From: Candidatus Micrarchaeia archaeon
GTDB lineage: Archaea; Micrarchaeota; Micrarchaeia; Anstonellales; VGKX01
Assembly: GCA_041650395.1 (NCBI GenBank)
Contig: JBAZLG010000003.1
Coordinates: forward strand, 182,917-246,916
Reading direction: 5' to 3'
Length of the DNA stretch: 64,000 nt
The translations under genes and the position numbers were made by a program. The notes below the pieces were generated by a model. That model was not told the origin of the DNA. It searched no databases and saw only the letters and a list, made by a program, of their open reading frames with translations. Shown piece after piece: positions 5,793-46,428 of this stretch (positions are counted from its first letter, which is position 1; each line of letters starts with the position of its first letter).

Positions 5793-5904
5793 GCCACCCT
5801 ATTGCTTCAAAATGGTTAAAACCATTGCAGCCGCCTTGCCAGATAAATATATGTTTTGACACACTAAACCACGTGTTTATTAAGGCTAATTGAGAAATAA
5901 GGAC

Positions 5905-7788
5905 ATGCAAAAAGCCATTACGCCAGCTACAAGCATGAACATTGGAGGCAAGAAACTGTCCCTATCAATAAGCGAGATAGACGAATTCAGGAAAGCCATG
6001 CTAAAAAACCCGAGAATGCCCGGCTACGAGCGCTGGAAAAACCATTCAAACACCAGCCATGAGAGCTTCCTCGGGGCTTATGCGAAAAAAATAAGCTCCA
6101 CCATTGAGACAGCCAGGGCCGACAAAAAAAGAACGGAAGTGGAATTGTCAAGCCTCAATGCCAACAAGCAACAGCAGGACGTGAGGCGCGCCGAGCTGGA
6201 AGTGAAGATTTCAAGGGTTCAAAAAAACATTGACAAGGACATAGAAGCCATGCAGGCCATAGAAGCAGAATGTGCCTCCATGATAAAGAACGCATCCCGC
6301 ATTCTCAAAGAATCGTTCGACATCAGGGAAGAGATAAAAAACAATACTTTCCTGGCGCGCAAGGGGCAAAGCAGCCTCAACACGTTTTGGCAGGAATTCG
6401 CAAAGGACCTGGACGACGTGCCCGATGAGTTCAGGGAAGTGCTGCTTTCCGGGGAAGATTCGCCCCAGCTCACCGAAGTCTTCCTGCTGGGCCATCCGGC
6501 CTACCGACTCCTCTTCGATGTGCAGGAGGTCCTCAAGGATTACGATGAAATCAGCCCGGTCAGGGCGATGCCAAGGCTCGCAGAAGAATTCGGCTATAAA
6601 ATGCCCGATTTCAGCCAGGTGAAAACCCTGGCTGACATGGACCCGGGCTTTTTGAAGGACAATCTTGAGATTTACACAAGGTTCCAGAATGCAAAGGGCG
6701 AGTTCAAGGGCTCATTCAAGAAAATGGATGCTAAAATCGCCAAGGCGAAAAAATACCTGGACGGAAAGAGCAGGGCATACGAGATTTACCAAAACCATGC
6801 CAAAAATGGCAGGATAAAGAAACTGAAGATGCTTGAAGGCCTGGACATCAAGGACTACGAAACCATGATGGAACTGGAATTGAAATATTCCGGCAAGGCG
6901 CACGCGCTGGCGGCGGAGATGAACGCGCAGTCAAAAAGGACCTACAACATCAGCGTAGAATACTCGAAAACAGTGCTTGACATAGTGGAGAGGATGCTCA
7001 CCAAGGAAGAGCTTGAAAAAGAGCTTGCCGGGCTTCCTGTTGACGCCTCATATGTCGCCAAGCACGAAAAACTCGTAACCAAGCTCGCAATCCAGCAATC
7101 CAGGCTTGAAGACCTGGAAAACACGCGCTGCAAGGCGCAAGGAGAATTGAAAAAGGAGCTTGACAGGCTGGCAGCCAAGGAAACCTCGAGAAAATCAAGG
7201 AGGACAAGCGAGGAAAACCTTCATGCATATTTCGAAAAAATCGAGGCAGGGGAAAAGCCGGGCGGGAGGGACCCCAAATTCGTGTTCGAGGGAAAACACA
7301 ATGGCGAGAATGACCTGCTGCCGGAAGCGCGCCAGATAAGCGGGGAGGCAATGGAGAATTTCATAAACGTGATTTCAGGGGAATTCCCGGTCATTGAGAA
7401 AAGCTATACCAAATACACGGGCCAGTTCAGGGAGACAATGGAAACCCTCGCGCTTGCATACGCGGAAAACGGGTTCAGGCTGTCCCTGAAGGCCCTGTTC
7501 ATGGCATTCCCGGGGAAAGTTAAGGTCGAATCGACATACAAGAAATTCCCGTACAAGCCGGTAAGGATTGCGATAGAATCCAGCGCGATGCTAAGGCTCC
7601 TCGTGGACATGACAGACAATGAAAAGCCAGTGATTTTCTTCGTGGGCTCCAAGTCAGAATCAGAGAAAATCATGCCGAGGGACAGCCTGAAGCAGGCTAT
7701 CGAATCCGCGAAAAACAACCCGAATCTTGCCGGGCTATTTGAAACCCTCAAGCAGCCAGAAAAGGAAAGGCAGTTCTCTGCAAAATAG
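5905..7788 (+). CDS. Large K/E-rich coiled-coil hypothetical protein (about 627 aa)
   Basis: Long intact ORF. The track start 5890 is TTG and the first ATG is at 5905. No TM and no recognised catalytic motif. GC is slightly lower than the neighbours. Confidence 0.5.
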   Translation: MQKAITPATSMNIGGKKLSLSISEIDEFRKAMLKNPRMPGYERWKNHSNTSHESFLGAYAKKISSTIETARADKKRTEVELSSLNANKQQQDVRRAELEVKISRVQKNIDKDIEAMQAIEAECASMIKNASRILKESFDIREEIKNNTFLARKGQSSLNTFWQEFAKDLDDVPDEFREVLLSGEDSPQLTEVFLLGHPAYRLLFDVQEVLKDYDEISPVRAMPRLAEEFGYKMPDFSQVKTLADMDPGFLKDNLEIYTRFQNAKGEFKGSFKKMDAKIAKAKKYLDGKSRAYEIYQNHAKNGRIKKLKMLEGLDIKDYETMMELELKYSGKAHALAAEMNAQSKRTYNISVEYSKTVLDIVERMLTKEELEKELAGLPVDASYVAKHEKLVTKLAIQQSRLEDLENTRCKAQGELKKELDRLAAKETSRKSRRTSEENLHAYFEKIEAGEKPGGRDPKFVFEGKHNGENDLLPEARQISGEAMENFINVISGEFPVIEKSYTKYTGQFRETMETLALAYAENGFRLSLKALFMAFPGKVKVESTYKKFPYKPVRIAIESSAMLRLLVDMTDNEKPVIFFVGSKSESEKIMPRDSLKQAIESAKNNPNLAGLFETLKQPEKERQFSAK

Positions 7789-7789
7789 G

Positions 7790-8746
7790 CTATTTTTTAA
7801 CAAGCTTCGCCTGCCTGTGCTTTTTCAGGTCAGATGCGAGCTCTACCACGAACCGTGCATAATAGCCGGAATGGTTGTAGGCGAAAGCCGCCTTGTAATT
7901 GGTGCCTTCCCTGGAAAAGCCGGAATGCATGGAAGCGCCGGCATCCCTTAAGTATCTTGATACCAAAGAGATAGAATATTGCACTGAAAACGCGTATTCG
8001 AAGCTTGTGCCTTCAGGCAAGACGTCGTATTTGAGGAAAGACGACGGGAGGAACTGGCCAGGGGTGAAAGCCCCGCGCTCCGAGCCCTTGACTGAAAACG
8101 GGTCGATATGGTACTTGTCGCAGATTTGAAGGAAACAGGACAATTCGCGCTTTGCAAAGGCCTTCCACGCCCTTGAATCCTCCATCAGAGAAAGGAAGAC
8201 ATTGACGCATGCGAGCTCGCCCGTGTATCCTGCGTAAATTGTTTCTATGCCATGGACAGCAGTTACCAACTCCTCCGGAGTGCCTGTGGAGTCCTGCGCC
8301 GCTGCAAGGTCTAAAGAGTATTTTTCCTGGAATTTTATGCCTTTTTCCAGCAACTTGTCATAATGGTACAATTCCTTGTATCTCTCATATGTGAACGGCT
8401 TTTTCACCTTGGAGGTGTCAGGCTTTGGCTTTTTGAAAAGCACGTATTTCTCAAGCTGTGAATCAGAAAGCAGGGAGTCCACGGAAACCGCACCCCTGCC
8501 CGTATGCAGCAGGAATTTCCTGGCTTCCTTGAGAGTTGCCTCCTTGAAAACAAGCATTGGCTTGGTGGAATCCTTTCTTGCCGCTTGTTTTATAGATGGC
8601 TTTGCAATGCAGGTGTCAACCAGCGGCGCGGGCGGCTTGAAAGAAGCCTGCTTCTGGAAAGTGGAAAAAACCCTGTAGCTTAGTATTGACGAGCCAATCA
8701 TCAGGCCTACAATAATGCCTGTTCTGGCTTTTTGCGGTATTTTCAA
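7790..8746 (-). CDS. Membrane-anchored MltB-like lytic transglycosylase (SLT_2 family)
   Basis: AVHGIETIYAGYTGE matches the catalytic GVET region. KGSERGAFTPGQFLPSSF matches KGSFAGAMGYGQFMPSSY. C-terminal YNHSGYYARFV matches YNHSTHYAMAV of E. coli MltB. N-terminal TM helix. The start codon is TTG. Confidence 0.6.
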   Translation of the reverse strand: MKIPQKARTGIIVGLMIGSSILSYRVFSTFQKQASFKPPAPLVDTCIAKPSIKQAARKDSTKPMLVFKEATLKEARKFLLHTGRGAVSVDSLLSDSQLEKYVLFKKPKPDTSKVKKPFTYERYKELYHYDKLLEKGIKFQEKYSLDLAAAQDSTGTPEELVTAVHGIETIYAGYTGELACVNVFLSLMEDSRAWKAFAKRELSCFLQICDKYHIDPFSVKGSERGAFTPGQFLPSSFLKYDVLPEGTSFEYAFSVQYSISLVSRYLRDAGASMHSGFSREGTNYKAAFAYNHSGYYARFVVELASDLKKHRQAKLVKK

Positions 8747-8844: not shown

Positions 8845-8969
8845 GGATAGAGTTGCCCCCGTAGTCCAACCTGGATAGGACGCAAGCCTCCGAATGGCAT
8901 GCCCGCACGTTTGATGCGGCAGACTTGCACAAATGCAAGAAGAAAGTTTGTGGTCCGGGTTCAAATCCC
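8845..8969 (+). tRNA. Candidate intron-containing tRNA-Arg (anticodon CCG). It is 125 nt long, so about 50 nt must be intronic, probably as two introns. No encoded CCA.
   Basis: Acceptor stem GCCCCCG/CGGGGGC. D-arm GUCC-AACCUGGAUA-GGAC. Anticodon stem-loop CAAGC-CUCCGAA. T-arm CCGGG-UUCAAAU-CCCGG at the 3' end. A TATA-like gatatataag sits about 30 nt upstream. The 3' half of the anticodon stem is not contiguous (ACUUG at 8913-8917), and a further 22 nt intervenes before the T-arm. Confidence 0.55.
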
Positions 8970-9009
8970 GGCGGGGGCGTTGACATTTTACTACTCAGCG
9001 GGGCGTGTT

Positions 9010-11061
9010 TTACTTCTTGAGATGGGTTATTGCTGGCCGCAACCCTCTTACAAGCTCCTCAAACGAGGCGTCAAGGAGTTCAGCGTACTTTTTAATATCA
9101 ATTTCCCTCCTGCTTGCCTGCCTGGCAGGCCTGGGGCCGAACAGGGAATAAACAAAGACCGAGACATTTGCCGCATTGGGCTCCTGCCTGAACGCCACCA
9201 CGTGGGGCGCATTTGACACATAATCGCCAATATCCCTTCCAATAGCCTTTGTTATGGCAAAATCTGCCAGGACGAATTCCCCTTCCTTTAGCCTTTTCTT
9301 GAAATCCGCAAGCAACCCTTTCGCCTCCTTTATGCCAGCACATGCATCAGGGGCTGAAAGAATTGCTTTCGCCATCCTCTCCTGGCACTGGACTGCAAGG
9401 GCGCATGAATCCGAATGCCTGACAGCTATTCCTCGCGCCTCCATCCTGCCGTCCTGCATGAGGCCATAATAGTGATTGGCAACTCCTGACGCGTCCTTGG
9501 CTGCTGGGAATACAAGCCTTGAAAAAATGCAATCGAGTTCCAGAGTTATGCCTGTCTCTGCGCTCACTTTCCTGACATAATCCAGATACTGCTTCTCATT
9601 CCCGCCTGACACGAAAACGCTGTCCACCATGCCATACAATGCCTCAAACCCTGCATCTTCGGCAATCTCCTTTGCCATGGAGAGGATATGCCTGCCATAG
9701 AGCATTACGCATTCCTTGCACTCCACATTTGAGAATATGAAGTTGGAGAATCCCAGGTATCCAAAGCAGGTTACTAAGATATTTTTCAGGGCTCTCTGCC
9801 TCATGTCAAACTCCGCCCTCTTAGCCGGGTCAGTTGATGTCTTTGCAAGATGCTTCAGCTCAAGCCTCCGCCTAAGGACTTCCTCGATTCCCTGAGGTAT
9901 TATGCCTTTCCTCTCTGTGCAGGTCTTCCAGCCAGCTTCAGGCACTATCATTGGCTCTTTGCAGCACGTGCATGTGATGGTTTCGGGGCTGATGTTGTAT
10001 TTCACTATGATATTGGGGTACATGGAAGCAAAATCGCATTTTGCCACATTCTCGTAAATCCCCGGAGTCGGATAGATTATGGAGCCGCCCTTGTCCAGCT
10101 GCATGAGGAGCTTGAGGGATTTGGGCCTCTCCATCTCCTTTCGCAAGTCAGGGACAAGGTAGCCATTCCTCTTAGCCGCCCGTATATGAAGATAGGTATT
10201 GAGCCGCCCGGGTGTAATCCTGCAAATTGTGTCAGGCTTTGCGCCCGTCATTTGAGAAAGCTCGATAAGCCTTGCTATCCTGCTTTTCCCTATCCCCAGA
10301 ATCTCCTTTGCCGAGTCTTGCCCGATTGGCAGGTTATGCTCGTTGTAAATGTCGTATCCAATGTCCTTTCTCAGGTCAATATGGGCGCAGGAATCAAAGA
10401 ACACGCCAAAGATATTCCCAAGCGAGCTTGCGGCTCCGTATCGTTTAAGATAAGAGTCCCCGCCATAGGAGAATATCATGTCCGTGCCTGTTTCCCTTAG
10501 AGCCTCTGCCAGCTTGGCAGGATGGATTACCATCTGCGGTTTCCCCTCCAGGACAAGGTTCAAGTATTTGGGATTGACACTTGTAGGGGCTATTGCACCG
10601 CAGGAGAGGGGCGGCAGTTCCAGGGAGCTTGTCTTTTCCATTGATATGAGTTTCCCCTGCTCCGCAACAACGTCGTAGAGCGAGAAGAAGGCGGCATCTT
10701 TTTCCATCACGTACTTGAAATACTGAGGTATTGCCGTTTCGGCTATCTCCTTGATTCCTGGGATAATTTTCATGTCCTTGACTACCCTTTTGTAATTTCT
10801 GGCGTAGTCCACCACTACCTTTATGGCATCAGTCTTGCCCTTCGCGTCCAAGGACACGTACTTCTGCTCTATCTCCGCGTCAAGGACATGGGGGTGCTTT
10901 GAGGCATAATCCTCCGCTTCCTGTGGATTGCCTGACACGAGATAAAACGAATGCCTGAATCTGTCCGAGAGCACTATGTTCCCGCCATCCCGTGTCTTGA
11001 AGCCAAGGCTCACGCTGTCCTGGCCTTCCCGTATATCCAGAAGCCAGCCTTGGAATCGCAT
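9010..11061 (-). CDS. Family-B DNA polymerase-like protein with substituted catalytic motifs (probably an inactivated PolB paralog)
   Basis: Motif A DFASMYPNII is present. The motif B region KNILVTCFGY replaces KxxxNSxYG. The motif C region LYGMVDS replaces YxDTDS. Exo I (FDIET) is not recognisable, with LSCGAIAP at that position. The ATG at 11059-11061 overlaps the upstream gene's TGA stop as ATGA. Confidence 0.6.
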   Translation of the reverse strand: MRFQGWLLDIREGQDSVSLGFKTRDGGNIVLSDRFRHSFYLVSGNPQEAEDYASKHPHVLDAEIEQKYVSLDAKGKTDAIKVVVDYARNYKRVVKDMKIIPGIKEIAETAIPQYFKYVMEKDAAFFSLYDVVAEQGKLISMEKTSSLELPPLSCGAIAPTSVNPKYLNLVLEGKPQMVIHPAKLAEALRETGTDMIFSYGGDSYLKRYGAASSLGNIFGVFFDSCAHIDLRKDIGYDIYNEHNLPIGQDSAKEILGIGKSRIARLIELSQMTGAKPDTICRITPGRLNTYLHIRAAKRNGYLVPDLRKEMERPKSLKLLMQLDKGGSIIYPTPGIYENVAKCDFASMYPNIIVKYNISPETITCTCCKEPMIVPEAGWKTCTERKGIIPQGIEEVLRRRLELKHLAKTSTDPAKRAEFDMRQRALKNILVTCFGYLGFSNFIFSNVECKECVMLYGRHILSMAKEIAEDAGFEALYGMVDSVFVSGGNEKQYLDYVRKVSAETGITLELDCIFSRLVFPAAKDASGVANHYYGLMQDGRMEARGIAVRHSDSCALAVQCQERMAKAILSAPDACAGIKEAKGLLADFKKRLKEGEFVLADFAITKAIGRDIGDYVSNAPHVVAFRQEPNAANVSVFVYSLFGPRPARQASRREIDIKKYAELLDASFEELVRGLRPAITHLKK

Positions 11062-11744
11062 CAGAGCCACCTGGCAAGCGAATGCTGGCTTTGGATTTCC
11101 ACAACGCATTCCGCCTTGCATGGGTGTTTTTGAACCTCAAAATGAAATCTAGGGCGTCCCTTTACCTCTATTATCACTGCCGAATGCTCCCCCAGGTAGG
11201 GATGGATTGGCTGGGGCGAGTTGTCAAACACCACTCCGTGGCAGCTGTTCATGGCGCATAGCCTGGCAAACATGCCTATGGCATGCGTCATTGACATCAG
11301 GCTGGCGTCTTTCTTCCCAGGCTCCTTGTACAAGTCTGATATGGAATCCAAGATAACAAGGTTGAGTCCCGTGCCAAAGTCAAATATGCGCTGCCAGTTC
11401 TGCCGCATTTCCACGGTGTCCCTTGAAAATACCCTCAAGAAAAAGACCGATTCAAGCAGGTTGTCCACGTCCGCGCCCTGCATCTTGGCAGCCTGCACTA
11501 TGCCGTCTATGTCTATAGTCCAGTACCTGTCGTGGTATTCCACGAAGTGAAGGTATAGAATCCTCTTGCCCGGCCTGCATGCCCTCACAAGCATGGCGGT
11601 TGCCAATGGCGAGAGTAGCCGAGGGTCACTGGCGCGCAGCGTGATTATTCCGTCCCCTATGTCCAGGAAACTGTCAAGTGCCCCTATCCCCGTCTTCAAG
11701 CCTTGCCTGCTTGCCTGTTGAGTCCAGTTTTCTTGCTGTTTCAT
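11061..11744 (-). CDS. RadB/KaiC-like RecA-superfamily protein with a degenerate Walker A
   Basis: GIGALDSFLDIG...LVILDSISDLY gives a RecA-fold Walker B, but the P-loop position reads ASDPRLLS with no GKT/S. Translationally coupled to the PolB-like gene by an ATGA overlap. Confidence 0.55.
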   Translation of the reverse strand: MKQQENWTQQASRQGLKTGIGALDSFLDIGDGIITLRASDPRLLSPLATAMLVRACRPGKRILYLHFVEYHDRYWTIDIDGIVQAAKMQGADVDNLLESVFFLRVFSRDTVEMRQNWQRIFDFGTGLNLVILDSISDLYKEPGKKDASLMSMTHAIGMFARLCAMNSCHGVVFDNSPQPIHPYLGEHSAVIIEVKGRPRFHFEVQKHPCKAECVVEIQSQHSLARWL

Positions 11745-11961
11745 CCCTATCACGCTTCAGATAAACAGCTGCGGCAAGCACCATGGCTATGCCTATGTCC
11801 GCCTCGTTTGCCGCGTCTATGGCAGTCCGCCTGTCGCGAATGACTGACATGATTTCATCAAACGCCTTCCTGTCGCTTTTGCCAAGCGCCCTCCCGAATG
11901 CCTCCCACTGGGCTATCTTGGCGTCAATGCGCGCAGTAGCTGACGGTATGCTTCGCCCCAT
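11674..11961 (-). CDS. 95-aa ORF overlapping the 5' end of the RadB-like gene by about 70 nt in another frame (possible N-terminal fragment or frameshift)
   Basis: ATG-initiated ORF with protein-like composition. The overlap suggests either a shadow ORF or a frameshifted RadA-like N-terminus. Confidence 0.25.
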   Translation of the reverse strand: MGRSIPSATARIDAKIAQWEAFGRALGKSDRKAFDEIMSVIRDRRTAIDAANEADIGIAMVLAAAVYLKRDRDETARKLDSTGKQARLEDGDRGT

Positions 11962-12067
11962 CTGAAAACCGCATGAGTTCGCAAGGCTTCAGTTAATAAA
12001 CAGGCAAAGGGGTGGTTTTCCAGTATGTTTCGGTAGGTTAAAATACGCCAAAATCCGTAGTATTTCC

Positions 12068-12733
12068 ATGTGCCTCCGATATGCGTTTAGCGTCATGGAC
12101 AGGGACGAAGTGAAGCAGAGGTTCGCACTGGTTCAGATAGCATACGAGCTTGAAGCCAGGTATAACATAGCTCCAACCCAATCTGTCCCCGCCATATTCA
12201 ACGATTCAAAGAATACGCTGTCTGGCGCACTCTGGGGAATGCCAGCTCAATGGGCAAATGAGCCGGGCAAGCTCCTGTTCAATGCGCGCGCGGAGTCAAT
12301 TGACTCAAAGCCCACATTCAGGCGGCATTTTGAGGAAAGCCGGTGCCTGATGCCTGCCAATGCATTCTACGAGTGGAAACACCCTGAAAAGAGGCCTTTC
12401 AGGTTCTCACTGAAGGATGATGCCATGTTCGCATTTGCAGCCATATACTCAATTGACAAGGAAAGCCAAAGGCGCTCGTGCTGCATGATTACCACGGAAA
12501 ATAATGCCCTTGTGGGCCAGGTCCATAATCGGATGCCTGTTATCCTGCCTCTCATGCGTGAAAAAGAGTTTCTTGATGCCACTCCAAAGGAGGCCAAGGC
12601 CATGCTAGTGCCATTCCCTGACAGCCTGATGGGCATGTATGAGCTTACCTCGCGGATTAACTCGTCAAGGGTGGATTCGCCCGAAATAATCAAGCCCCAA
12701 ACTGAAAAGGGGACATTGAAGGAGTATTTTTGA
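12068..12733 (+). CDS. yedK: SOS-response-associated peptidase (SRAP/YedK/HMCES family, DUF159), abasic-site DNA-protein crosslink protein
   Basis: N-terminal MCLRY matches the MCGRY-type start, with the catalytic Cys at position 2. Conserved ARAES...FRR and YEWK motifs. A TATA-like ttaaaata lies about 28 nt upstream. Confidence 0.8.
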   Translation: MCLRYAFSVMDRDEVKQRFALVQIAYELEARYNIAPTQSVPAIFNDSKNTLSGALWGMPAQWANEPGKLLFNARAESIDSKPTFRRHFEESRCLMPANAFYEWKHPEKRPFRFSLKDDAMFAFAAIYSIDKESQRRSCCMITTENNALVGQVHNRMPVILPLMREKEFLDATPKEAKAMLVPFPDSLMGMYELTSRINSSRVDSPEIIKPQTEKGTLKEYF

Positions 12734-12857: not shown

Positions 12858-15593
12858 ATGATTGATGCTATGGAAAATGAGTCGTTAATTAATGAAGACA
12901 AAATTAAACTGCTTGCAAAAAAACAATTGGATCAATATCCTTTAGACAAAGATTTAAGTGCAGAGTGGGATCGGTTCTTGTCTAGTAAATATAATCTACA
13001 ACGTTATAGAGCTCTGGCAAATCTTTTATATAAAAGTTCATTATTAACTCTAAAAAAAGAAACAGAGATTAAAGATAGTGATCAGCGTATTATTCTTTTT
13101 AATAACGCCTATGAAGCAGTAAAACAGGCAGAACTAATTTTTCGAACTATAAACCTTCTTGTTTTAAGTTATGGATGTAGGTCTGTATCCTTACAATTAA
13201 AAATAAAAATTATCTTTGATTCGAACTCTATTTCTATCACTGCTGATTCTTTTAACAAAGAAGTAAATTCGATCATAGATGAAATTAGAATATTCATAAA
13301 TGATTTTGATAAGTATGGAGAAGATATTGCTTCGAAACAAATTCAGATTATTTTGTTATTTGGTTCAGTCATACATTCTCCAGTTATTAAATTGAATAAA
13401 CTTAAAATGTTTAATAAGGCGGAAGAAATAATTCAGTTTATCAAAGAAAATACAGATAAGTTAGATCTGAGATCTGGAAAATATTCTCCATCATTCGAAA
13501 ATACAGCAAAAACAATTTTTGATCAGATACTCTTAGTTAATGCTGAGACTTTGTCCCGAAAAGAACAATCAATAAATGGTTATTCATTAAAAGCGGCAGA
13601 TTATTATCTTGATGTGAGTAATAAAATTGAATCCGAAGCTATCAAAACAGAAGCTCTCCAACATTATTATCGAATTCTGGCTTTTCGTAACAAATATACT
13701 GGTGCAAATAATGATCAACAAAATTTTATTAGTTATATTGACTCTGCGATTGTGACTTCAGAAAAATTCAACCCTAAACAGGCAGTCTTTTTAAAAGGTT
13801 TTAAAAATCAGCATCTTTCAAGATTTAGATCAAGAAGTCTCGAAGATAGAATTGACCTAATTGGGCGAGCGATTGGTTTTTTTAAAATGGCTGGGCCTAA
13901 TCATATATCAGATCTCAAAATATCTAATTTTTATTCATTATATCTACAGTCATTACAATCTGAACTTCTGAATGTTGAACGTTTAAGTTTAATTGAGCGT
14001 GCACTTGTAAATGTTGAGACAACCCCATCAATAAAATCCTTATATCGCATTGAATATAGTGAATTACTACTTCAGTTCCATTTCTTTTCATTTATAAAAA
14101 ATGTTAAAACTATGAATTATCATTCTGCCTTTAAGCATTTGAATGAATTAAATAATCTGGGGGGAAATCGTTCATCAATTAGGTCATATTATTGGATTGG
14201 TCGTATTATTGGTCAATCGTCAAGGGATCAACAGAAAATAAATTTAATTAATTGGAAAGTTGAACTAGAGACTCTTAAGGAAAGTGGTTCGATAGATAAT
14301 CCCAAACTTCGTAATTTCATTGATGATGTCATTTCATATGCTCAACTTGCACAAAACGATTCTTCAGGGATTGTCGAGAAAAAAAGATTAGAGCTAATAA
14401 GTCTGTTTGCTGGTGAACAACTAAATTTGTCTGAAATATACGATATTCGTTCATTACTTGGTTATCCTAAACTTAGTGCGTTGTTACCCAAAAAATTAAA
14501 AGAGCGCATTGAAAAAAACTCTACCATTTCCAATCAAATTTCAGATCCAAATATAAAATTAGAAATTGCCGGATTTTTTAACTATCGATTGATTGGTAAT
14601 TTATTGGACATATTAATTGAAGGTTATTCAAAATTTCTTTATGATGAGGAATGGGAGAAAAAAATAATTGAAATTACCCAAAAAGATCCGGAAAGAATTA
14701 CTATAGGGGATCAATTAAAATTATTAAAAAAATTCTGTCATGAATACTGCCCACTAGAAGGTATGCCGATTGAGTGGTTGGCAGAGCTCGAAGATGATCA
14801 TTTAAACAGTCGAAATTCTATAATCCATGATTTCGAACCCGAAATTGCAAATTTAGAATTGGAACATCTTCAGCAAGCAATTTATTCAATATTAAAATAT
14901 ATTCCATTGCCTCTATATGTAGAAAATAATTCATATTTCTTATTTGAAAAAAAAGAACCCGTAGATCTAAAAATTCAAGATATCCCAGATGGAATCTACG
15001 GTGCTATAATCGCGCCATCTAATGACCGCCCACGTGAACAACAGAAAATTATTTTTGTCTGTAATCTAACTTTGGCAAGCTCCAAACAAATTGGTTATAG
15101 CGAGGGTACCAAAAAAATTCATATTATGCATTACTCAAAAAATAGAGATAATTTTGATGGCACACAATTATTTGAAAAAAAATTGACAATCGATATACCG
15201 ATTGAATTCTGGGCTGAAAAAAATAATGAAAATTTTGATAAGGCATTTATTAAAATTGAAGATAGTGCTAAAAGAGAATTTGGTGAAGCTTATGCAAAAG
15301 ACTATTGTATTTGTAATCAGTTTATAACAGCAACTAGAAAAGCTGCTGATTTAGATGAACATAAACTTATGAATTATATGGAGGGCGCATTATATCATTT
15401 AAGTCGTCATCTTAACTTGAATTATTATACTGGACGTGGATTATTATCAAAAGAAATTATTTTTGGAATAAATAGAGGTCGAATATTGGATTTAAGTAAT
15501 AAAGAAGTGGCTATATTTAAATTTAAAAAAATGAAAAATGTTCTGATAAAAATGAGGGTACGGATTGATACTCCTGATGTTCTATTAAATTAA
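12858..15593 (+). CDS. Large (911 aa) hypothetical protein encoded in a low-GC island, with a single HEPN-like Rx4H motif (SRNSIIHD)
   Basis: About 30% GC against about 57% in the flanks. Single uninterrupted ORF. The only recognisable motif is R-N-S-I-I-H near residue 650. No Walker motifs and no TM. Confidence 0.7.
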   Translation: MIDAMENESLINEDKIKLLAKKQLDQYPLDKDLSAEWDRFLSSKYNLQRYRALANLLYKSSLLTLKKETEIKDSDQRIILFNNAYEAVKQAELIFRTINLLVLSYGCRSVSLQLKIKIIFDSNSISITADSFNKEVNSIIDEIRIFINDFDKYGEDIASKQIQIILLFGSVIHSPVIKLNKLKMFNKAEEIIQFIKENTDKLDLRSGKYSPSFENTAKTIFDQILLVNAETLSRKEQSINGYSLKAADYYLDVSNKIESEAIKTEALQHYYRILAFRNKYTGANNDQQNFISYIDSAIVTSEKFNPKQAVFLKGFKNQHLSRFRSRSLEDRIDLIGRAIGFFKMAGPNHISDLKISNFYSLYLQSLQSELLNVERLSLIERALVNVETTPSIKSLYRIEYSELLLQFHFFSFIKNVKTMNYHSAFKHLNELNNLGGNRSSIRSYYWIGRIIGQSSRDQQKINLINWKVELETLKESGSIDNPKLRNFIDDVISYAQLAQNDSSGIVEKKRLELISLFAGEQLNLSEIYDIRSLLGYPKLSALLPKKLKERIEKNSTISNQISDPNIKLEIAGFFNYRLIGNLLDILIEGYSKFLYDEEWEKKIIEITQKDPERITIGDQLKLLKKFCHEYCPLEGMPIEWLAELEDDHLNSRNSIIHDFEPEIANLELEHLQQAIYSILKYIPLPLYVENNSYFLFEKKEPVDLKIQDIPDGIYGAIIAPSNDRPREQQKIIFVCNLTLASSKQIGYSEGTKKIHIMHYSKNRDNFDGTQLFEKKLTIDIPIEFWAEKNNENFDKAFIKIEDSAKREFGEAYAKDYCICNQFITATRKAADLDEHKLMNYMEGALYHLSRHLNLNYYTGRGLLSKEIIFGINRGRILDLSNKEVAIFKFKKMKNVLIKMRVRIDTPDVLLN

Positions 15594-17101: not shown

Positions 17102-18454
17102 TTACGGGCAGGAGTAGGCCGCAGCCACTGGATTGATATGGTCTGAAGGTATGACAGGAGTGCTTGTGTCCTGCACCGTGTTTTCAAGATAGTTCAGGTT
17201 CAAGAGGAAACTGCACTGCCTGTCCGCGCTGCCATTTGCCGCAAAGCCCGCAAACACGTTCATTTTGGGCACCATGTACTTCTGGCACGAGCCGAACCAG
17301 CCGTTGAATTCGGGATGGATTTGCTGGCCTGAAGTGCTGACAAGCCCATAATCGCACGCCTGTGAAGTGCATGTGCGCGGCATAGAATCAAGCCCGTAAT
17401 AAGCAACGCCAATCACGCCGCTTTGTGCAAGTATCTGCTTGAGCTCGAACACCCTCTGGAACGCGGTTGCCACGTCCTGCTCCGTGTAGGTGCACATGCC
17501 GTCGTCGGACTTGCCCGGGCTTGCGGCAAAGTAATACCACAGTATAGGCTTTCCATATGTCTGGCGAAGGTATTTTGCGAACTGGACGTTTTGCATTATG
17601 GCGATTTCAAGATCGCACGTGCCGGAATAGTTGTTGAGTATGATACCCTGGCCGACAATGTCAACGTACTTGGAATTGTGGCTGCCCCCAGAATCATTGA
17701 GGAAATAATTTATCGTCTTCAAGTCGAGCCTCTGCGCGGCAAGCATTGTCAGGCACTTGGTGCAGTTTGCCTTTACAGCCGCAAGCTGGTCAAGCACCTT
17801 GTACCTGTCGGCATAGCCCGCGTCGACCTCGCTTGAGACTATCACAGGCCCCTCGCCGTCAAGCTCATGCGCTATTGCGCCGCTGGCGCTCGCGTTTATG
17901 TTAAGCCCTGCGCTGTAATAGAGATATACGGGCAACGCGTTCTGGCGCAGGTAGCAGATTGCCATGTCAGCAGACGAGAGCGCCGGCGGGCTTGTCGAGT
18001 TCCCTTTCAGCCAGATTACAGGCATTGTCAGGGAATTGTTGCAGTATGTCTGCGCCCGGGCAAAGTCGGTTGCATTTGGCCCCTGGCCTATCATGAAAAG
18101 CATGGGGAACGAGCCGTCGGAATTCGACGAATCGTTGAGCGCGCTGAAAGTGGAATAGTTCATGCGCGTGAACGAGCAGTTGCCGTAGTGCAGGTTTGAC
18201 GAGAGGCCGAGGAAGCCAGAATCGTTCTTGCACTCGAACACAGTGCATGGCGTCATGTTGCTGTCGGAGCAGACTCGGGTTATGTTGGTTATGTTGAACT
18301 CGACAAGCTTGTCAGGATTGACAGGCCCGCTGACGCAGCCAAGCGAGAGCAGGGCTAAAGAAACAATGGCGGCAAGGAAAATGGCTCGAAGCCACAGCCT
18401 GCCTGCAAAAATTGTCCTGACAGAGTCCATGATAACAATACCTTTATAGCTCAT
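17102..18454 (-). CDS. Secreted or membrane-anchored Cys-rich glycoprotein with many N-x-S/T sequons
   Basis: N-terminal hydrophobic segment AIFLAAIVSLALLSLGC. More than 15 NxS/T sequons. Its ATG overlaps the upstream giant gene's TGA stop as ATGA at 18451-18454. Confidence 0.6.
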   Translation of the reverse strand: MSYKGIVIMDSVRTIFAGRLWLRAIFLAAIVSLALLSLGCVSGPVNPDKLVEFNITNITRVCSDSNMTPCTVFECKNDSGFLGLSSNLHYGNCSFTRMNYSTFSALNDSSNSDGSFPMLFMIGQGPNATDFARAQTYCNNSLTMPVIWLKGNSTSPPALSSADMAICYLRQNALPVYLYYSAGLNINASASGAIAHELDGEGPVIVSSEVDAGYADRYKVLDQLAAVKANCTKCLTMLAAQRLDLKTINYFLNDSGGSHNSKYVDIVGQGIILNNYSGTCDLEIAIMQNVQFAKYLRQTYGKPILWYYFAASPGKSDDGMCTYTEQDVATAFQRVFELKQILAQSGVIGVAYYGLDSMPRTCTSQACDYGLVSTSGQQIHPEFNGWFGSCQKYMVPKMNVFAGFAANGSADRQCSFLLNLNYLENTVQDTSTPVIPSDHINPVAAAYSCP

Positions 18455-21400
18455 TGAGAGAGATTATAATGGCAGTTGGGGCACTCGCCAGTGCCCAGTG
18501 CAAGCGCCCTGCCGCAGCTTGGGCATGAGAAGTGGGTCCTGTCCAAAAGCTTCTTGTGGGAGGACTTGGTGAATGGCTTGATTGGAGCCTTTAACAGGTT
18601 CTTGCCGCTCTCCCCCATGACCTTGCCTATTGCCTCGCCCTTAGTTGCGCCCGTGGCCTCCACGTGGTGCTCCACGTTCTGCTTTATCTCCTTGTATGAG
18701 AACAACGGCCAGAGGAGGGGGACTGCGAAGGCCATCGGCCTGAACCTGCCCTGGAAGCCAAAGCCCGCAAGCTCGTGTTCCCTGTCGCCGAGGTGGAATT
18801 CAGCAAGCTTGTCGCGTTTCCATACGTCCACTGTCGAATCGCGCTGGAAATTGGCCCGCTCGTTCCTGTAATAAAGATTCTTGTAAATGTTAAGCTCCGG
18901 ATTGGCATTGAGCGTCTGGGCAATGCGCGGGTGCATGCGGTCATAACTGTCCTCAAAGTCCTTGAAGAACATGCCCGGCGGGCCGAACTTGTTGACGTTC
19001 TGGTAGTGCACCTTGAACATTTCATAATGCCTCATGGAGCCGCCCGACTGGAAGTAATTGTAGCCGGAGCGGTTGATGTAGGAATAATGGCCCTTTTCAA
19101 AGAACCACTTGTACCATGGAGCGTCAGGGTTCCTGATGTCAGTGCCGTACTTGTCCTCGTAATCCTTTGCAAAGCGCCTCCTGTCATATTCGCCGCTGTT
19201 ATTAAACATGGGCTCGAAAGTCCATGGCAGGGGGGCCTTGAACTTGGTGCCGCCGCCAAGGTCATTTCCGACGTCCCGGTTCACTAGGGAAAATCCTTCC
19301 TCTGTTGAGAACTCGCCCCATCTCCTCGACCGCGGGGCTGCATACCTGTTGAAGCGGTTGAACGACTCCCAGGGGGTCAAAAGCGACATGACAGCCTCGC
19401 CATAGGCTGGGCGCCTTGCCTGCGCCTGGTCGGAAACCACAGGATAGCCAACTGCAAGGGAGAAGAAAGACCTTGTGTGCTGCCCGAATAGCTGGGCAAA
19501 TGGCTTTGTCACCTTTAAGCTCATCTTGTTTATGAAATCCCCGGGCAAGAGGTTGTGGCCGAGGATGATGTTCGGGTTTTCATACATGCCCTGCCCGGTA
19601 TGGTAACCCGTAGCAAGCATCTGGTACATGCCGTAGCTTGAAGAGCCGAAGCGCGGGTCACGCATCTGGCTCGACTCCATTACGTTGTAGAAGTTCTGGA
19701 ACTGCCTGCCCATTTTCCGTGCCATGAGGAATTCGTCGTAATATGACGCGGTCTTTATGCCCTTCTGGACAGAGCGCAGGTCGTCATAAGTCATGTTGTA
19801 ATCGCGCAGGCTTTTCCTGGCCTCGTCCAGTTGTTTCCCTATCTTCGCATGTTCGACAGGGTTCCCGGCACTTGCGCTGTACTTGCCCTGCAATGCAACG
19901 ACATTGTGCTCAAGGGCCTTGGGATCCGTGCCTGCGATCTTGGACTTCAGCCCGGAGAGGACTATTTGGACATCAATGTCGCCATTTTTGACCCTTTCGG
20001 CCAGTTTCTTGCCCTCTGTGGAAGAGAGAGGCGGCAGTTCCGCGTTCCCGCCTTTTGGGAGGTATTTGCCCGAATTGAAGGCGTCCATGTATTGCTGGAG
20101 TATCAGCCTGTTTGCGGCCTGCGTGGCAAAGGAATCCTGCAATGACTTGGTCTTGTTTGAAATGCCGCCAATCATGACAGCTTCCGCGAACAGGCCGAGG
20201 TTTGCTATCTTCCGCGTAATGGAATTGTCCCCGCCCATCTGGGGCGCCTTTTCGCGTATCTGGAGCTTGTCCGAAGTGAAGGCGGCTATCTTATCAGTCC
20301 TTGAAAGGCCGTTAAACTGCGCGAGCGTGGATATGGTGTTGCCGTTTTTGTCCTTCAGGTTCAATGCCTTGACCGCCGCGTCGGTTTTTATCGCCCCGCC
20401 GTCGACGGCATCGGAGAACTGCTGTATGCTGTTTTTCAGCATGGCGACGGCGTTGTCATGGTCGCGCTTGAACGGCTTGTACTTGACCCATTCGCCATTG
20501 TTGTTGAAATACAATTTGCCGTTTAGGACCTTGTCGCCTTCCGCAAGGGACATGCCTGCAAAATAGGGCATCATCTTCATGTCGATGTCCCCGACCCAGA
20601 CGCCCTGGCGCAGCATGCCGCCGGTTATTCCGCGCTTTATTACGTCGGAATAGGCTTCCTCAAACGTCTTGCCCTTGTACCTTGAATCGTCCTTGCCATA
20701 AGCGTCAAACCAGTTCTTGTAGCCCGAGTAAAGCCCGACATTGAACTCCCTCGTGCTGTCAAGCCTCTTGTACAGGTTCTGGTTGCGCGAGTCCAAAACG
20801 CCGACAACCCTGTCAGTGACTCCGTCAAGATAGGCCAGCTGCCTTGCGCGGGATTTCGTCTCCGGAGTGCCGGCATCTGTTCCGGCCGCCACCGCGTACC
20901 TGTTCATTATCAGGCCGTGGCCGGATTTCATTGCCTGGTCCACCCAGCCGTCCCTGCCTATAAGCTTGCCGGCCGCGCCATTGATCCTATCGAATGTCTT
21001 GGAAGCCGCCTCCCTGACGGCAGAATTGTAATCCTTGCCGGATTTCATGGCCATTGCCACTTCGTCCATCATCATAGCAGCCACGGCGCTCTTCCTCTTG
21101 CCGGACAGGGCGTCGTTGTACTGCCTGTTTATCTCGGCCATAGTCTTTTCGGCCAATTCTTCCTTCTTCTTGCCTGACAAGCCGGGCTCGTTGAACGAAT
21201 ATATGCGCGAATATATCTTCCTGTCCGTAAGCGAGGACATTGAAACCGATTTGACGTCCTCGCCGAAAAGGAAGGAGAACTTGTTGGAGAAGCCCTTCAT
21301 CATGTCCGAGAGCTTCTTGTCAATGTTCGCGAGGTCGTCAAAGCCCTTTGAGAGCGAGGACGGGTTCACGAGATTGTCGATTACCTTCATCGTCTTTGCC

Positions 21401-23415
21401 AGGTCGACGGAGCCGCCCCTGGAGGTGTTGACCTTGGATACGAGGGCCGCTGCGAACTTGCCCATGTCAAGCCCGGAACCCTGGGAATTGGCTTTGCTGA
21501 CAAAGCTTCCCATGGTTTTTTGAATTTCATCAAATGCCTTTGACTGGGCAGTAAGGGTTTTTGCCGCAGCAAGGTCGGAGTAGAGTTTGGCGAATTCCTT
21601 GTCAAGGGCGCTTAGTTTCCCCTGGACGGCCTTGCTCGATACTGCTGCGATATAAGCCTGCCTTTGGGCATCCAGGATATTGCGTTCCAGAGACATGAAT
21701 TGTTTCCTGTCGGATGCGCTCATGGAACGAATCAGGTTCCTCTCGTCGCCTGCAAAAATCTCAAGGCTTTTGAGTTTGCGCTCGTATTGCTTTTGATTAA
21801 GCGAACCGCTGTCAAGCTTGCCCTTCAAGTCCTTCTTTAATGCCTCAATCTTGGCTCTCTCCGCATCAAGCAGCTTGTTCCTCTCGCCTGAAACCTGTGC
21901 AAGGGCCACGAGTGCAAGCCTTTCCTTCAGGGCCTTCGTGGCGTCGTCAATCTTGCGCCTCAGCTCTACCACCGGGTCCTTGGCGTCTGCCACCTTGCGC
22001 GTCTTGAAGGACTTGCCATCCACAGTTATCCACTCAAACGGGTTGGCGCCATGGCCCTTGAATATGCCCGTGATGAAATGGTCCTTCTTGCCAAGCACTT
22101 TCTTGAATCCCATGCGCTCTGCCATTTCGACGGCAAACTGCCTGCGTATGTCCTTTTTGAGGCCATGGACAGACCTGCGCGAGGCAATGGCGGAAGCTGT
22201 GTAGAGCACGACCTTGTTGACAAGGGGGACCTTGCCAAGCACGTTGCTGTCGCTGTAAATCATCTTGCCTGCGACCTTGTCAAAGCCATAGGCCTTTGAA
22301 TAATACTGTTTTGTCATGAGATGGGAATTGAGCACGCCCGAAAGGTCAGCGGAGTGCAAAAGAGCCGACTGGAGGTTCTTGTCGCCAAGGCCGCCTATCT
22401 GCTTGAGGTAAAGCTCCCTGTTGAGGGCCGCAAGCTCGTATTTGGAATTGACCTTGTTTGCAAGGTAGCGCATGAGCCTGTCGAGAAGGCCCGTGTCTTT
22501 TACTTTTTCGAGTGCTATCCGCCTTAAAAGGGCCGCCTTTGCGACGTCGGACAGGTTGCTTTGCATGACCTTGTTGACCAGGTTGCGCTTCCCTGCCTCC
22601 TTGCCAAGAAGCATGGCAACGCGGGCATTTGCAAGCCTTAATGCCGCCGACGCCTCGCGAATCTGGCGCTTGTTAAGCCTTAGTGCCATAAGCAGGTTGG
22701 TGCCGACAGTAACCTTGTGCATCTTCGCCTTTTTGCCCTTTGGCAGCCTCGGGGTGGTAATGTCGAAAAGAGACAGGGGGTTCCTGCCGGAATAATACAT
22801 GGAAGCTATGAGAAGCCCTATTATCAGGGATATGGGGAAACAGGCTACTATGTTCGCCGGGTCTGAAACCAGGTTTGCAATTGAGGTGCCTATGGCATTG
22901 ACCCCGACATTGTTCTGGTCGCACACTATTATCGACGAGTCAGCAGGCAGCCTCTTGGGGGCCATATTGTTGCCCGCGTAGGAGACATAGACGGACTTGC
23001 ACGTGCCTGCGAGGCTTGAAGTGCCGATGGTGCATTTTGCCACGCCGTTGGAATCAGTGACGAGGTTCTCGCAGCCCGATATTGCTGCTCCAGTCGAGGG
23101 GTCGTCAAAGTGGAAGTGCAGGGTCTCGCCTGCAAGGGGCAAGACGTCAAATGTCGCAAAGCCGTAAGAGTTTGAAGACGGGTCGCCTGTGCCAGTTGTC
23201 AGGTATTGCTTGTCGTTTTGGAAATCCTGCGAATTGAGCAGGTCAAGTGACGATACATTGACAAAAGTCGCGGCTGCAGTTATCTGGTAGCTTGAAGAAT
23301 TGTAATACAGGCTGATGGTAGTCCGCCCGCATATGTCGCATGGGACATTCTGCCCGAAAGAGGGGTAGAGCAGCAAAGTCAAGACTAAAAGCCCAATTAT
23401 CTTATGTCCCTGCAT
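18451..23415 (-). CDS. Giant (about 1654 aa) membrane protein with signal peptide, Cys/sequon-rich ectodomain, one TM, a very long coiled-coil-rich region and a C-terminal zinc ribbon (CPSCGRALALGTGECPNC)
   Basis: Start set at internal Met 23415 (MQGHKIIGLLVLTLLLYPSFG signal peptide), because the track ORF runs into the leuS 3' end. A TATA-like tttaaaataaag lies about 30 nt upstream on the minus strand. Confidence 0.6.
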   Translation of the reverse strand: MQGHKIIGLLVLTLLLYPSFGQNVPCDICGRTTISLYYNSSSYQITAAATFVNVSSLDLLNSQDFQNDKQYLTTGTGDPSSNSYGFATFDVLPLAGETLHFHFDDPSTGAAISGCENLVTDSNGVAKCTIGTSSLAGTCKSVYVSYAGNNMAPKRLPADSSIIVCDQNNVGVNAIGTSIANLVSDPANIVACFPISLIIGLLIASMYYSGRNPLSLFDITTPRLPKGKKAKMHKVTVGTNLLMALRLNKRQIREASAALRLANARVAMLLGKEAGKRNLVNKVMQSNLSDVAKAALLRRIALEKVKDTGLLDRLMRYLANKVNSKYELAALNRELYLKQIGGLGDKNLQSALLHSADLSGVLNSHLMTKQYYSKAYGFDKVAGKMIYSDSNVLGKVPLVNKVVLYTASAIASRRSVHGLKKDIRRQFAVEMAERMGFKKVLGKKDHFITGIFKGHGANPFEWITVDGKSFKTRKVADAKDPVVELRRKIDDATKALKERLALVALAQVSGERNKLLDAERAKIEALKKDLKGKLDSGSLNQKQYERKLKSLEIFAGDERNLIRSMSASDRKQFMSLERNILDAQRQAYIAAVSSKAVQGKLSALDKEFAKLYSDLAAAKTLTAQSKAFDEIQKTMGSFVSKANSQGSGLDMGKFAAALVSKVNTSRGGSVDLAKTMKVIDNLVNPSSLSKGFDDLANIDKKLSDMMKGFSNKFSFLFGEDVKSVSMSSLTDRKIYSRIYSFNEPGLSGKKKEELAEKTMAEINRQYNDALSGKRKSAVAAMMMDEVAMAMKSGKDYNSAVREAASKTFDRINGAAGKLIGRDGWVDQAMKSGHGLIMNRYAVAAGTDAGTPETKSRARQLAYLDGVTDRVVGVLDSRNQNLYKRLDSTREFNVGLYSGYKNWFDAYGKDDSRYKGKTFEEAYSDVIKRGITGGMLRQGVWVGDIDMKMMPYFAGMSLAEGDKVLNGKLYFNNNGEWVKYKPFKRDHDNAVAMLKNSIQQFSDAVDGGAIKTDAAVKALNLKDKNGNTISTLAQFNGLSRTDKIAAFTSDKLQIREKAPQMGGDNSITRKIANLGLFAEAVMIGGISNKTKSLQDSFATQAANRLILQQYMDAFNSGKYLPKGGNAELPPLSSTEGKKLAERVKNGDIDVQIVLSGLKSKIAGTDPKALEHNVVALQGKYSASAGNPVEHAKIGKQLDEARKSLRDYNMTYDDLRSVQKGIKTASYYDEFLMARKMGRQFQNFYNVMESSQMRDPRFGSSSYGMYQMLATGYHTGQGMYENPNIILGHNLLPGDFINKMSLKVTKPFAQLFGQHTRSFFSLAVGYPVVSDQAQARRPAYGEAVMSLLTPWESFNRFNRYAAPRSRRWGEFSTEEGFSLVNRDVGNDLGGGTKFKAPLPWTFEPMFNNSGEYDRRRFAKDYEDKYGTDIRNPDAPWYKWFFEKGHYSYINRSGYNYFQSGGSMRHYEMFKVHYQNVNKFGPPGMFFKDFEDSYDRMHPRIAQTLNANPELNIYKNLYYRNERANFQRDSTVDVWKRDKLAEFHLGDREHELAGFGFQGRFRPMAFAVPLLWPLFSYKEIKQNVEHHVEATGATKGEAIGKVMGESGKNLLKAPIKPFTKSSHKKLLDRTHFSCPSCGRALALGTGECPNCHYNLSQ

Positions 23416-23656
23416 ATCAGATATAAGATAATTCTTTATTTTAAACCTATGTTTAAGGGGACAAATGCGCCCAATCCATGGCAGGGCGCATGTGTTTAAA
23501 AATGCTTTTGTGTGGAGCGTTACGCATTTAGCCCGAAACCCCGCCCGGCCATGCCGGCCTAAATCAGAAAAAAGCAAAAAACATGCCAAAAAGGCTGCAA
23601 GCGGGTTGCCTGCGCACAGGTAAGCGGCATTTTTAGCCATCATGGCCGCCCGAAAA

Positions 23657-44697: not shown

Positions 44698-45288
44698 CTA
44701 GCTGGTTTTTTTAGAAATTTCATCAAAGATTTGGTCGGCTCCCCACGCTTGAGCTGCCGCCCATGCCATCTTACGTTTCTTTTCACGAGTTAAAGCGGCA
44801 GCAGGTTTGTAACCAAGATCGTGATTAGCCTCAGCCCATGCATATTGGAAAAGAGTGCAAATTTGAATTTCAAAAAAATCGATAGGAAGAGAATATTTTT
44901 CGACCATAGCTCGCGGAATTAGACAAATTATTTTTTTCCCTTCATAACCAAAAGAAGTTGGATCCTCTGGCTCAGCAAATCTGTCTTCTACAATTGCAAA
45001 TAATTTTAATATTTTAGTTGTTGCTGGAGTAATATTTGAACGATATTTAACAACAATACGAATACCTATTTGGTCTTGTATTTCAGATACTGGTGAATTA
45101 TATTTAAAGGTACCATCCTTATTCATTGTTTTTGACTTCTTAGAAAAACTATGGATAGACTTAACACGATACTTAACCTGGTCAACATATTCAGACTTCA
45201 AAAAGGAAGCTTGTAGTTGATTAAATAAATCTTTAGCTGGTCTTTCTAATTTTGGGAATAATGATTTATACTGAATTTCTTTTACCAT
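44698..45288 (-). CDS. RelA/SpoT-homolog (RSH) synthetase-fold nucleotidyltransferase, small alarmone synthetase-like (toxSAS-like)
   Basis: YRVKSIHSFSKKSK matches the RxKxxxSxxxK motif. IGIRIVVKY matches the G-x-R-I-V motif. FFEIQICTLFQYAWAEANHDLGYKP matches EIQIRT..QH.WAE..H...YK. About 30% GC. The start overlaps the upstream gene's stop by 1 nt. Confidence 0.75.
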   Translation of the reverse strand: MVKEIQYKSLFPKLERPAKDLFNQLQASFLKSEYVDQVKYRVKSIHSFSKKSKTMNKDGTFKYNSPVSEIQDQIGIRIVVKYRSNITPATTKILKLFAIVEDRFAEPEDPTSFGYEGKKIICLIPRAMVEKYSLPIDFFEIQICTLFQYAWAEANHDLGYKPAAALTREKKRKMAWAAAQAWGADQIFDEISKKTS

Positions 45289-46346: not shown

Positions 46347-46428
46347 TCTATCGTCACAGAAAACTTATGACTTCTAAGGTTATAAATGCGTGCATTTGAA
46401 TATAATTTTTATATATTTAAGTTTCTCT

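Follow-up and report, generated by a model that had tools for sequence, protein, structure and literature searches.

Does the minus strand of this stretch of Candidatus Micrarchaeia DNA (64 kb, hereafter the window) carry a broken recombinase gene beside a degenerate polymerase, or three intact genes that belong together? The question is raised by a RecA-like open reading frame (ORF) whose 5′ end is overlapped, in another frame, by a 95-aa ORF and whose 3′ end runs directly into the gene of a family-B DNA polymerase. We conclude, with a probability of about 0.9, that three genes, in the order PPB2-iRadA-PolB2, here form an intact PolB2 operon in the chromosome of a Candidatus Micrarchaeia (DPANN) archaeon, with a SRAP gene in divergent orientation, and that its products are expected by homology to form one translesion polymerase complex. 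The features in question are the following (positions of the window):

11674..11961, minus strand: PPB2 (“partner of PolB2”, arCOG07300 / Pfam DUF8156), the 95-aa ORF with an ATG start, assigned from its profile score and PF26485.
11061..11744, or from 11699, minus strand: iRadA, an inactivated RadA/Rad51-core protein, assigned from fold, profile comparison and gene context.
9010..11061, minus strand: PolB2, a family-B polymerase of 683 aa with a decayed exonuclease domain, assigned from PF00136 and motifs.
12068..12733, plus strand: SRAP (YedK/HMCES-type abasic-site peptidase), 221 aa, starting MC... (Cys2), assigned from PF02586.
11962..12067, without strand: divergent intergenic region of 106 bp, likely holding the promoters of the trio and of SRAP, from direct inspection of the sequence.

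Operons of this type have been described before. Makarova, Krupovic & Koonin (2014; PMC4104785) predicted an operon of PolB2 with a helical protein of ~90 aa (arCOG07300) and inactivated RadA homologs, some of which are so decayed that HHpred alone detects them. Timinskas, Timinskas & Venclovas (2025; PMC11791011) analysed 1823 operons, renamed the partners PPB2 and iRadA, and modelled a PolB2-iRadA-(PPB2)3 heteropentamer (ranking score 0.8-0.9) as a predicted translesion mutasome; the published iRadA proteins fall into arCOG07763/04294/08101.

In the window, the PPB2, iRadA and PolB2 ORFs follow each other on the minus strand in that order. The iRadA ORF offers three candidate starts, GTG at 11753 (longest ORF), ATG at 11744 and TTG at 11699; NCBI calls a protein of 227 aa from the ATG, while other gene callers report 212 aa from the TTG. 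The overlap with PPB2 amounts to 71 nt with the ATG start, as had been predicted (about 70 nt), or to 26 nt with the TTG start. At the other end, a four-base ATGA overlap with the polymerase gene had been proposed, but the junction reads GGC TCT GAT GCG: the iRadA stop (TGA at 11063-11061, minus strand) and the PolB2 start (ATG at 11061-11059) have one base in common (TGATG, in the context CTC TGA TGC). The same one-base overlap is present in independent gene calls (PPB2 95 aa, iRadA 212 aa, PolB 683 aa), and the 683-aa polymerase call is common to NCBI, JGI and Logan. A longer PolB2 start at ATG 11121 was dropped, as MRFQGWLLDI matches the N-termini of orthologs and every gene caller uses 11061. 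Public annotation names two of the three genes “hypothetical protein” (PPB2 is hypothetical protein WC506_05965) and the third “DNA polymerase domain-containing protein”. Proteins of identical sequence carry the deposited name “MAG: ... [Candidatus Micrarchaeia archaeon]” under locus tags WC506_05960 and WC506_05965, MAG standing for metagenome-assembled genome, and the window itself holds archaeal host markers (LonB, an archaeal-type PEP carboxylase and a tRNA with a presumed intron).

The identity of the 95-aa ORF is central to the question. Compared with a hidden Markov model (HMM) of 11 published PPB2 proteins, its product scores 52.3 bits (E 3e-18, positions 1-80 of 89); the published PPB2 and iRadA sequences used for HMMs come from the PMC11791011 supplement. 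PF26485 (DUF8156) is precomputed for the identical PPB2 protein and is carried by all database homologs. Our own Pfam scan of the 95-aa protein gave no match, presumably because the PF26485 model is not in that copy, and no usable NCBIfam match was obtained. In published PPB2 proteins, three alpha-helices come after an N-terminal “MGRT” arm that includes Arg3 and, near position 9, another Arg; a trimer is the favoured assembly (PMC11791011). The window protein begins with MGRSIPSATAR, the clade consensus being MGR(S/T/N)IPS, and M1, G2, R3 and R11 are invariant across the clade loci; the S-for-T variant of the arm is also present in published PPB2 proteins. An AlphaFold2 monomer model is all-helical, with a 7-residue arm and then helices 8-24, 28-49 and 53-91 (predicted local distance difference test, pLDDT, 70.8). 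Separate ORFs in five related loci (L001-L004 and L007) encode proteins 38-49% identical to it, so that both the sequence and the invariant N-terminus are kept in relatives. Judged by its sequence, the 95-aa ORF is PPB2, a member of an independent conserved family and not a frameshift remnant.

The second ORF had been described as encoding a RecA-fold protein without a Walker A motif, and this description was borne out. Its AlphaFold2 model, built on 25 family members (pLDDT 86.9; predicted template modelling score, pTM, 0.85), finds the ATPase cores of Rad51, RadA and Dmc1 as best PDB matches in Foldseek (template modelling score, TM, 0.73-0.80, E ~1e-11). The family profile likewise matches Rad51/RadA among PDB sequences at E 1e-9 to 1e-7, with a 5-residue deletion at the P-loop. 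In the alignment, “ITLRASDPRLLS” of the window protein stands opposite GEFRTGKT of Rad51, in a loop shortened by 5 residues and devoid of GK(S/T), and the family stretch “GIITLRxxxxxL” is aligned to “GSITELFGEFRTGKTQL” of Rad51 with a 5-residue gap. None of the 25 family members has GK(S/T) at the P-loop position (0/25). The ATP-binding loop of this RecA-fold protein is lost, whereas the Walker-B-like hhhhD(S/T) strand is retained in the family (“LVILDS” in the window protein, as predicted). Also missing, in comparison with RadA and Rad51, is the N-terminal helix-hairpin-helix (HhH)/helical oligomerisation domain; the conserved core begins within ~20 residues of the N-terminus. The protein is not expected to form filaments or to hydrolyse ATP.

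The label RadB/KaiC-like did not hold for this protein. RadB of the PDB is a much weaker match to the family profile (E 0.02) than RadA/Rad51; the NCBIfam RadA and RadB models give faint scores far below their cut-offs (14 vs 259 bits, and 12.5 vs 172 bits for TIGR02237 RadB), and the Pfam and NCBIfam scans returned no KaiC match and no Pfam match of any kind for the window protein. Its nearest active relatives are RadA and Rad51, rather than RadB or KaiC. A word-based homolog search reached 4 proteins only, and an exhaustive profile search over 1.84 billion representatives was needed to reach the family; it yielded 46 matches, 33 of them at E<=1e-10, and by this measure the family is small and divergent. 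Profile-profile comparison (hhalign) of the 25-member family with 9 published iRadA proteins gave a probability of 97.1% (E 6e-11, 166 columns). The iRadA C-terminus reads QHSLARWL, which resembles a PCNA box (QxxLxxW), and a C-terminal Qxx(L/I/M/V)xx(F/W/Y/L) is present in 17 of the 25 relatives; no comparable clamp-binding motif was seen at the PolB2 C-terminus (...RPAITHLKK).

The third ORF matches PF00136 (E 6e-36). It is 37% identical to S. islandicus PolB2 (Sulfolobus Dpo2) over 223 aa (residues 265-486, 139 bits, E 2e-39), and scores 153 bits over 378 aa against Thermococcus PolB; the best NCBIfam model, NF004416, stays below its cut-off. The alignment to solved family-B polymerases is confined to residues 248-625, residues 1-247 being unaligned to any in the PDB. 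Motif A (DFASMYP) retains its Asp and motif B its Lys. Motif C reads YGMVDS opposite YSDTDG of Thermococcus PolB, with the first Asp replaced by Met and the second retained. The first Asp of the DxD is substituted in most PolB2 proteins (PMC11791011), and MVD is among the published variants. Published PolB2 proteins also conserve a D(K/R) motif, and a Rad51-oligomerisation-like beta-alpha motif just before it binds iRadA (PMC11791011); here, LDKGG, in the loop before motif A, has ADKGG, SDRGG or ADRGG as its aligned counterpart in six published PolB2 proteins, and the region upstream of DKGG is alignable with S. islandicus PolB2. The exonuclease domain DNA_pol_B_exo1 (PF03104) gave no match at E<=0.1, and an alignment with published PolB2 proteins, which is of low quality around the Exo I position, shows no DxE there. 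On these features we assign the polymerase to PolB2 (Dpo2-type), apparently without proofreading and with an altered motif C. The L001 ortholog (L001 8672-12238) is 1188 aa long and contains an intein with a LAGLIDADG domain.

A search of other genomes for the pairing of a polymerase with the RecA-fold protein had been proposed, and in fact the whole trio recurs elsewhere. PPB2, iRadA and PolB2 are present in the same order, with overlaps, in the window, L001, L002, L003, L004 and L007. Two of these loci, L003 and L004, belong to Micrarchaeota MAGs and were reached with a 4-sequence alignment. In a further locus, L006, iRadA overlaps the downstream gene by 4 nt. In four of the six trio loci (window, L001, L002 and L007; window 11674-11699) the PPB2 stop TGA lies inside conserved Leu/Phe-Asp codons of iRadA (YTT GAY), and the overlap is therefore a run-on of an unconstrained PPB2 tail. 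The overlapping frames are ordinary tight operon packing. A gene for an RNA ligase (PF09414 and Lig_C) lies within ~7 kb of the trio in L001 (1701-2771) and L002 (1-1027); it was not seen among the window ORFs scanned.

Set against the published PolB2 mutasome operons, the locus agrees in most respects. The same three families stand in one tight operon. PPB2 shows the MGR(S/T) arm, including Arg3 and a further Arg (R11 here). In iRadA, neither the N-domain of RadA nor the ATPase residues are present, and PolB2 combines a substituted first Asp of the DxD with a decayed exonuclease domain and the D(K/R) motif. PCNA-binding motifs are mostly on iRadA and rarely on both iRadA and PolB2 (PMC11791011), and the PCNA-type motif found here on iRadA, not on PolB2, fits this either-or pattern. 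The genes orc1/cdc6, lexA, SRAP and DUF72 are enriched near polB2, SRAP occurring in 134 of the 1823 operons (PMC11791011). SRAP is in the neighbourhood here too, as the original prediction of a small DNA-damage cluster had it: the divergent gene matches PF02586 with E 1.5e-51 (profile positions 1-199 of 214), and NCBI names its product “SOS response-associated peptidase”. No orc1/cdc6 was identified among the neighbouring window ORFs scanned, several of which have no Pfam match, and in this the locus is unlike the published operons.

Several points weigh against the assignment. The gene order here is PPB2-iRadA-PolB2, whereas the published orders are iRadA-PPB2-PolB2 (1a), iRadA-PPB2-PPB2-PolB2 (2) and PPB2-PolB2-iRadA (3a/3b); this comparison covers groups 1a, 2, 3a and 3b in the available part of the source, where no operon with the window's order was encountered, and the order may be reported under groups 1b, 1c or 4. 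The iRadA protein is very divergent and has neither a Pfam nor an NCBIfam assignment: alone it scores 7.4 bits against the HMM of 9 published iRadA proteins, other family members reaching 36-42 bits, and unlike the published proteins it sits in a small divergent subfamily (33 representatives at E<=1e-10). Because of this divergence, the case for its membership is built on the profile-profile comparison together with the fold and the gene context. The PPB2 model, which is only moderately confident, found no significant match in the PDB with Foldseek. A further difference from the published set, though not a point against, is that the only Micrarchaeota operon listed in the available part of the PMC11791011 supplement is classed as 1a and has the motif IVD, and therefore belongs to a different clade from the window operon.

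Two other explanations have to be weighed against an intact PolB2 operon. It had been suggested that the 95-aa ORF and the RadA-like ORF together approximate a full-length RadA, as halves of one gene separated by a sequencing error, a mutation or a programmed frameshift. The two ORFs do overlap, each of the six loci (6/6) has iRadA in the +1 frame with respect to PPB2, iRadA is without the N-terminal domain that RadA has, and iRadA-PPB2 and PPB2-PolB2 fusions are known from other lineages (PMC11791011). However, the missing RadA domain is an HhH domain, and the 95-aa protein is not one; it belongs to the PPB2/DUF8156 family, with its own conserved N-terminus and three helices. Besides the window, five further loci keep the two-ORF layout at the identities given above, which sequencing error does not explain, and identical protein sequences are present in independent NCBI, JGI, Logan and ENA assemblies. 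A protein that is conserved and has its own start in six divergent loci is therefore the product of neither a sequencing error nor a recent frameshift. As to a programmed event, the overlap falls on the PPB2 tail, which is not conserved, a change of frame at the PPB2 stop would leave out the conserved N-terminal K-T-G residues of iRadA, and the codon before that stop (ACU, UCU or GUU) would be expected to re-pair poorly in the +1 frame. The six-locus conservation refutes the sequencing-error version; programmed +1 frameshifting was rejected as unlikely and unsupported, and we regard a split RadA gene in any form as extremely improbable.

The other explanation takes the operon as it stands and denies it DNA synthesis: two catalytically dead replication paralogs would form a regulatory or scaffolding complex, in line with the pre-2020 view of PolB2. 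Motif C with Met for its first Asp, an exonuclease domain that is not detectable, and an iRadA that cannot bind ATP through its P-loop are all compatible with it, and inactivation of PolB2 was proposed in PMC4104785. Of the two degenerate paralogs that the original prediction envisaged, the RecA-fold protein without an ATP-binding loop stands, but the polymerase still has the Asp of motif A, the Lys of motif B and the second Asp of motif C. The intein in the L001 ortholog also speaks against a dead polymerase, inteins being usually found in functionally constrained sites. Sulfolobus Dpo2, whose motif C has the same kind of substitution (IID), is active as a translesion polymerase, inducible by damage and necessary for targeted, damage-induced mutagenesis, according to the in-vitro and genetic studies cited in the introduction of PMC11791011. 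We therefore consider a complex devoid of polymerase activity very improbable and retain the reading as an intact PolB2 operon. A dedicated complex of the operon products, which had also been predicted, would agree with the published interpretation (PMC11791011).

How such a complex would work we infer from the literature on the published system, from which the assembly of the complex and its stoichiometry, its induction by damage, its activity in translesion synthesis and the binding of PCNA are carried over. The products of PPB2, iRadA and PolB2 would assemble into one translesion-synthesis complex (“mutasome”), with PolB2 as the catalytic subunit that would act mainly in extension from distorted termini, as in Sulfolobus. 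One iRadA would bind PolB2 via the Rad51-oligomerisation-like motif just upstream of DKGG, and PPB2 would form a trimer, one N-terminal MGR(S/T) arm of which may insert between PolB2 and iRadA near the DNA and the active site. As a non-enzymatic adaptor, iRadA would anchor the complex on the sliding clamp (PCNA) through its C-terminal QxxLxxW. SRAP, a protector of abasic sites in single-stranded DNA, may be co-regulated with the trio.

The arrangement has a bacterial counterpart in the Pol V mutasome of E. coli (UmuD'2C-RecA), which likewise joins a damage-tolerance polymerase, a RecA-family subunit and a small accessory oligomer (comparison from PMC11791011). In Pol V, however, RecA is an active recombinase and not a dedicated dead paralog. 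The bacterial ImuA-ImuB-DnaE2 cassette follows the same analogous logic. In both bacterial systems the polymerases belong to families Y or C and not to family B, and the accessory proteins are unrelated.

The intergenic region 11962..12067 contains A/T-rich TATA-like boxes and an element GGAAAACCACCCC (12009-12021, minus strand). Its pattern, GGAAANCNNCCCC, precedes the PPB2 start at a comparable distance (48-66 nt), just before a TATA-like box, in the window (12009-12021, minus strand), in L001 (7718-7730) and in L007 (283-295), and looser copies are present in L003 and L004. It occurs once in the 64-kb window against 0.23 expected, a figure to be read with the post hoc derivation of the pattern in mind. 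The reverse complement of GGAAANCNNCCCC (GNTTTCC) resembles the damage-response motif ANTTTC of Sulfolobus Orc1-2 (PMC6061795). Because the pattern was derived after the sequences had been inspected, it is only a lead. A sigma-70 promoter and terminator scan was set aside as not applicable to an archaeon. One could go further and regard the Micrarchaeia-type clade as a distinct mutasome variant, defined by the order PPB2-iRadA-PolB2, a PPB2 tail overprinted on the iRadA 5′ end in the +1 frame, and GGAAANCNNCCCC as a possible damage-responsive operator shared with SRAP; in the most adventurous version, occasional +1 frameshifting at the PPB2 stop would produce a PPB2-iRadA fusion that helps to set a 3:1 stoichiometry. 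We hold this extension to be very unlikely.

Earlier publications already cover the operon type with its three components, as well as the dead P-loop, the presence of a PCNA motif on iRadA and the association with SRAP. The usefulness of the present assignment lies in the annotation of genes that now carry hypothetical or generic names. It indicates that a DPANN archaeon with a small genome keeps a dedicated translesion polymerase complex, and the divergent iRadA subfamily and the variant gene order could broaden the range of sequences available for studying the structure and evolution of PolB2 mutasomes.

The surroundings of the operon contain further features of note. On the strand opposite to PolB2, a short way past its stop codon, Rfam places a tRNA of 125 nt (8855-8979, plus strand, 48.5 bits) that ARAGORN missed and that presumably contains an intron. 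At 7790-8746 (minus strand) lies the gene of a protein of 318 aa that contains a lytic transglycosylase domain, SLT_2 (E 1.5e-26); its presence in this archaeal genome may reflect the DPANN lifestyle or a transfer from bacteria. A 632-aa ORF at 5890-7788 (plus strand) is without a Pfam match, and its MukB/JetC-like match in PADLOC is no more than marginal (E 1e-3); a 1794-aa ORF at 18451-23835 (minus strand) has no Pfam or PADLOC match. The 911-aa ORF directly after SRAP (12858-15593, plus strand), also without a Pfam or PADLOC match, is located in a stretch of low GC (31-38% vs ~54% elsewhere) and may be foreign DNA. A second low-GC stretch (34%) at 44698-47244 (minus strand) encodes a 196-aa RelA/SpoT-domain protein and a 352-aa protein without a family, and is adjoined by the gene of a 271-aa protein with a Whirly single-stranded-DNA-binding domain (E 9e-12).

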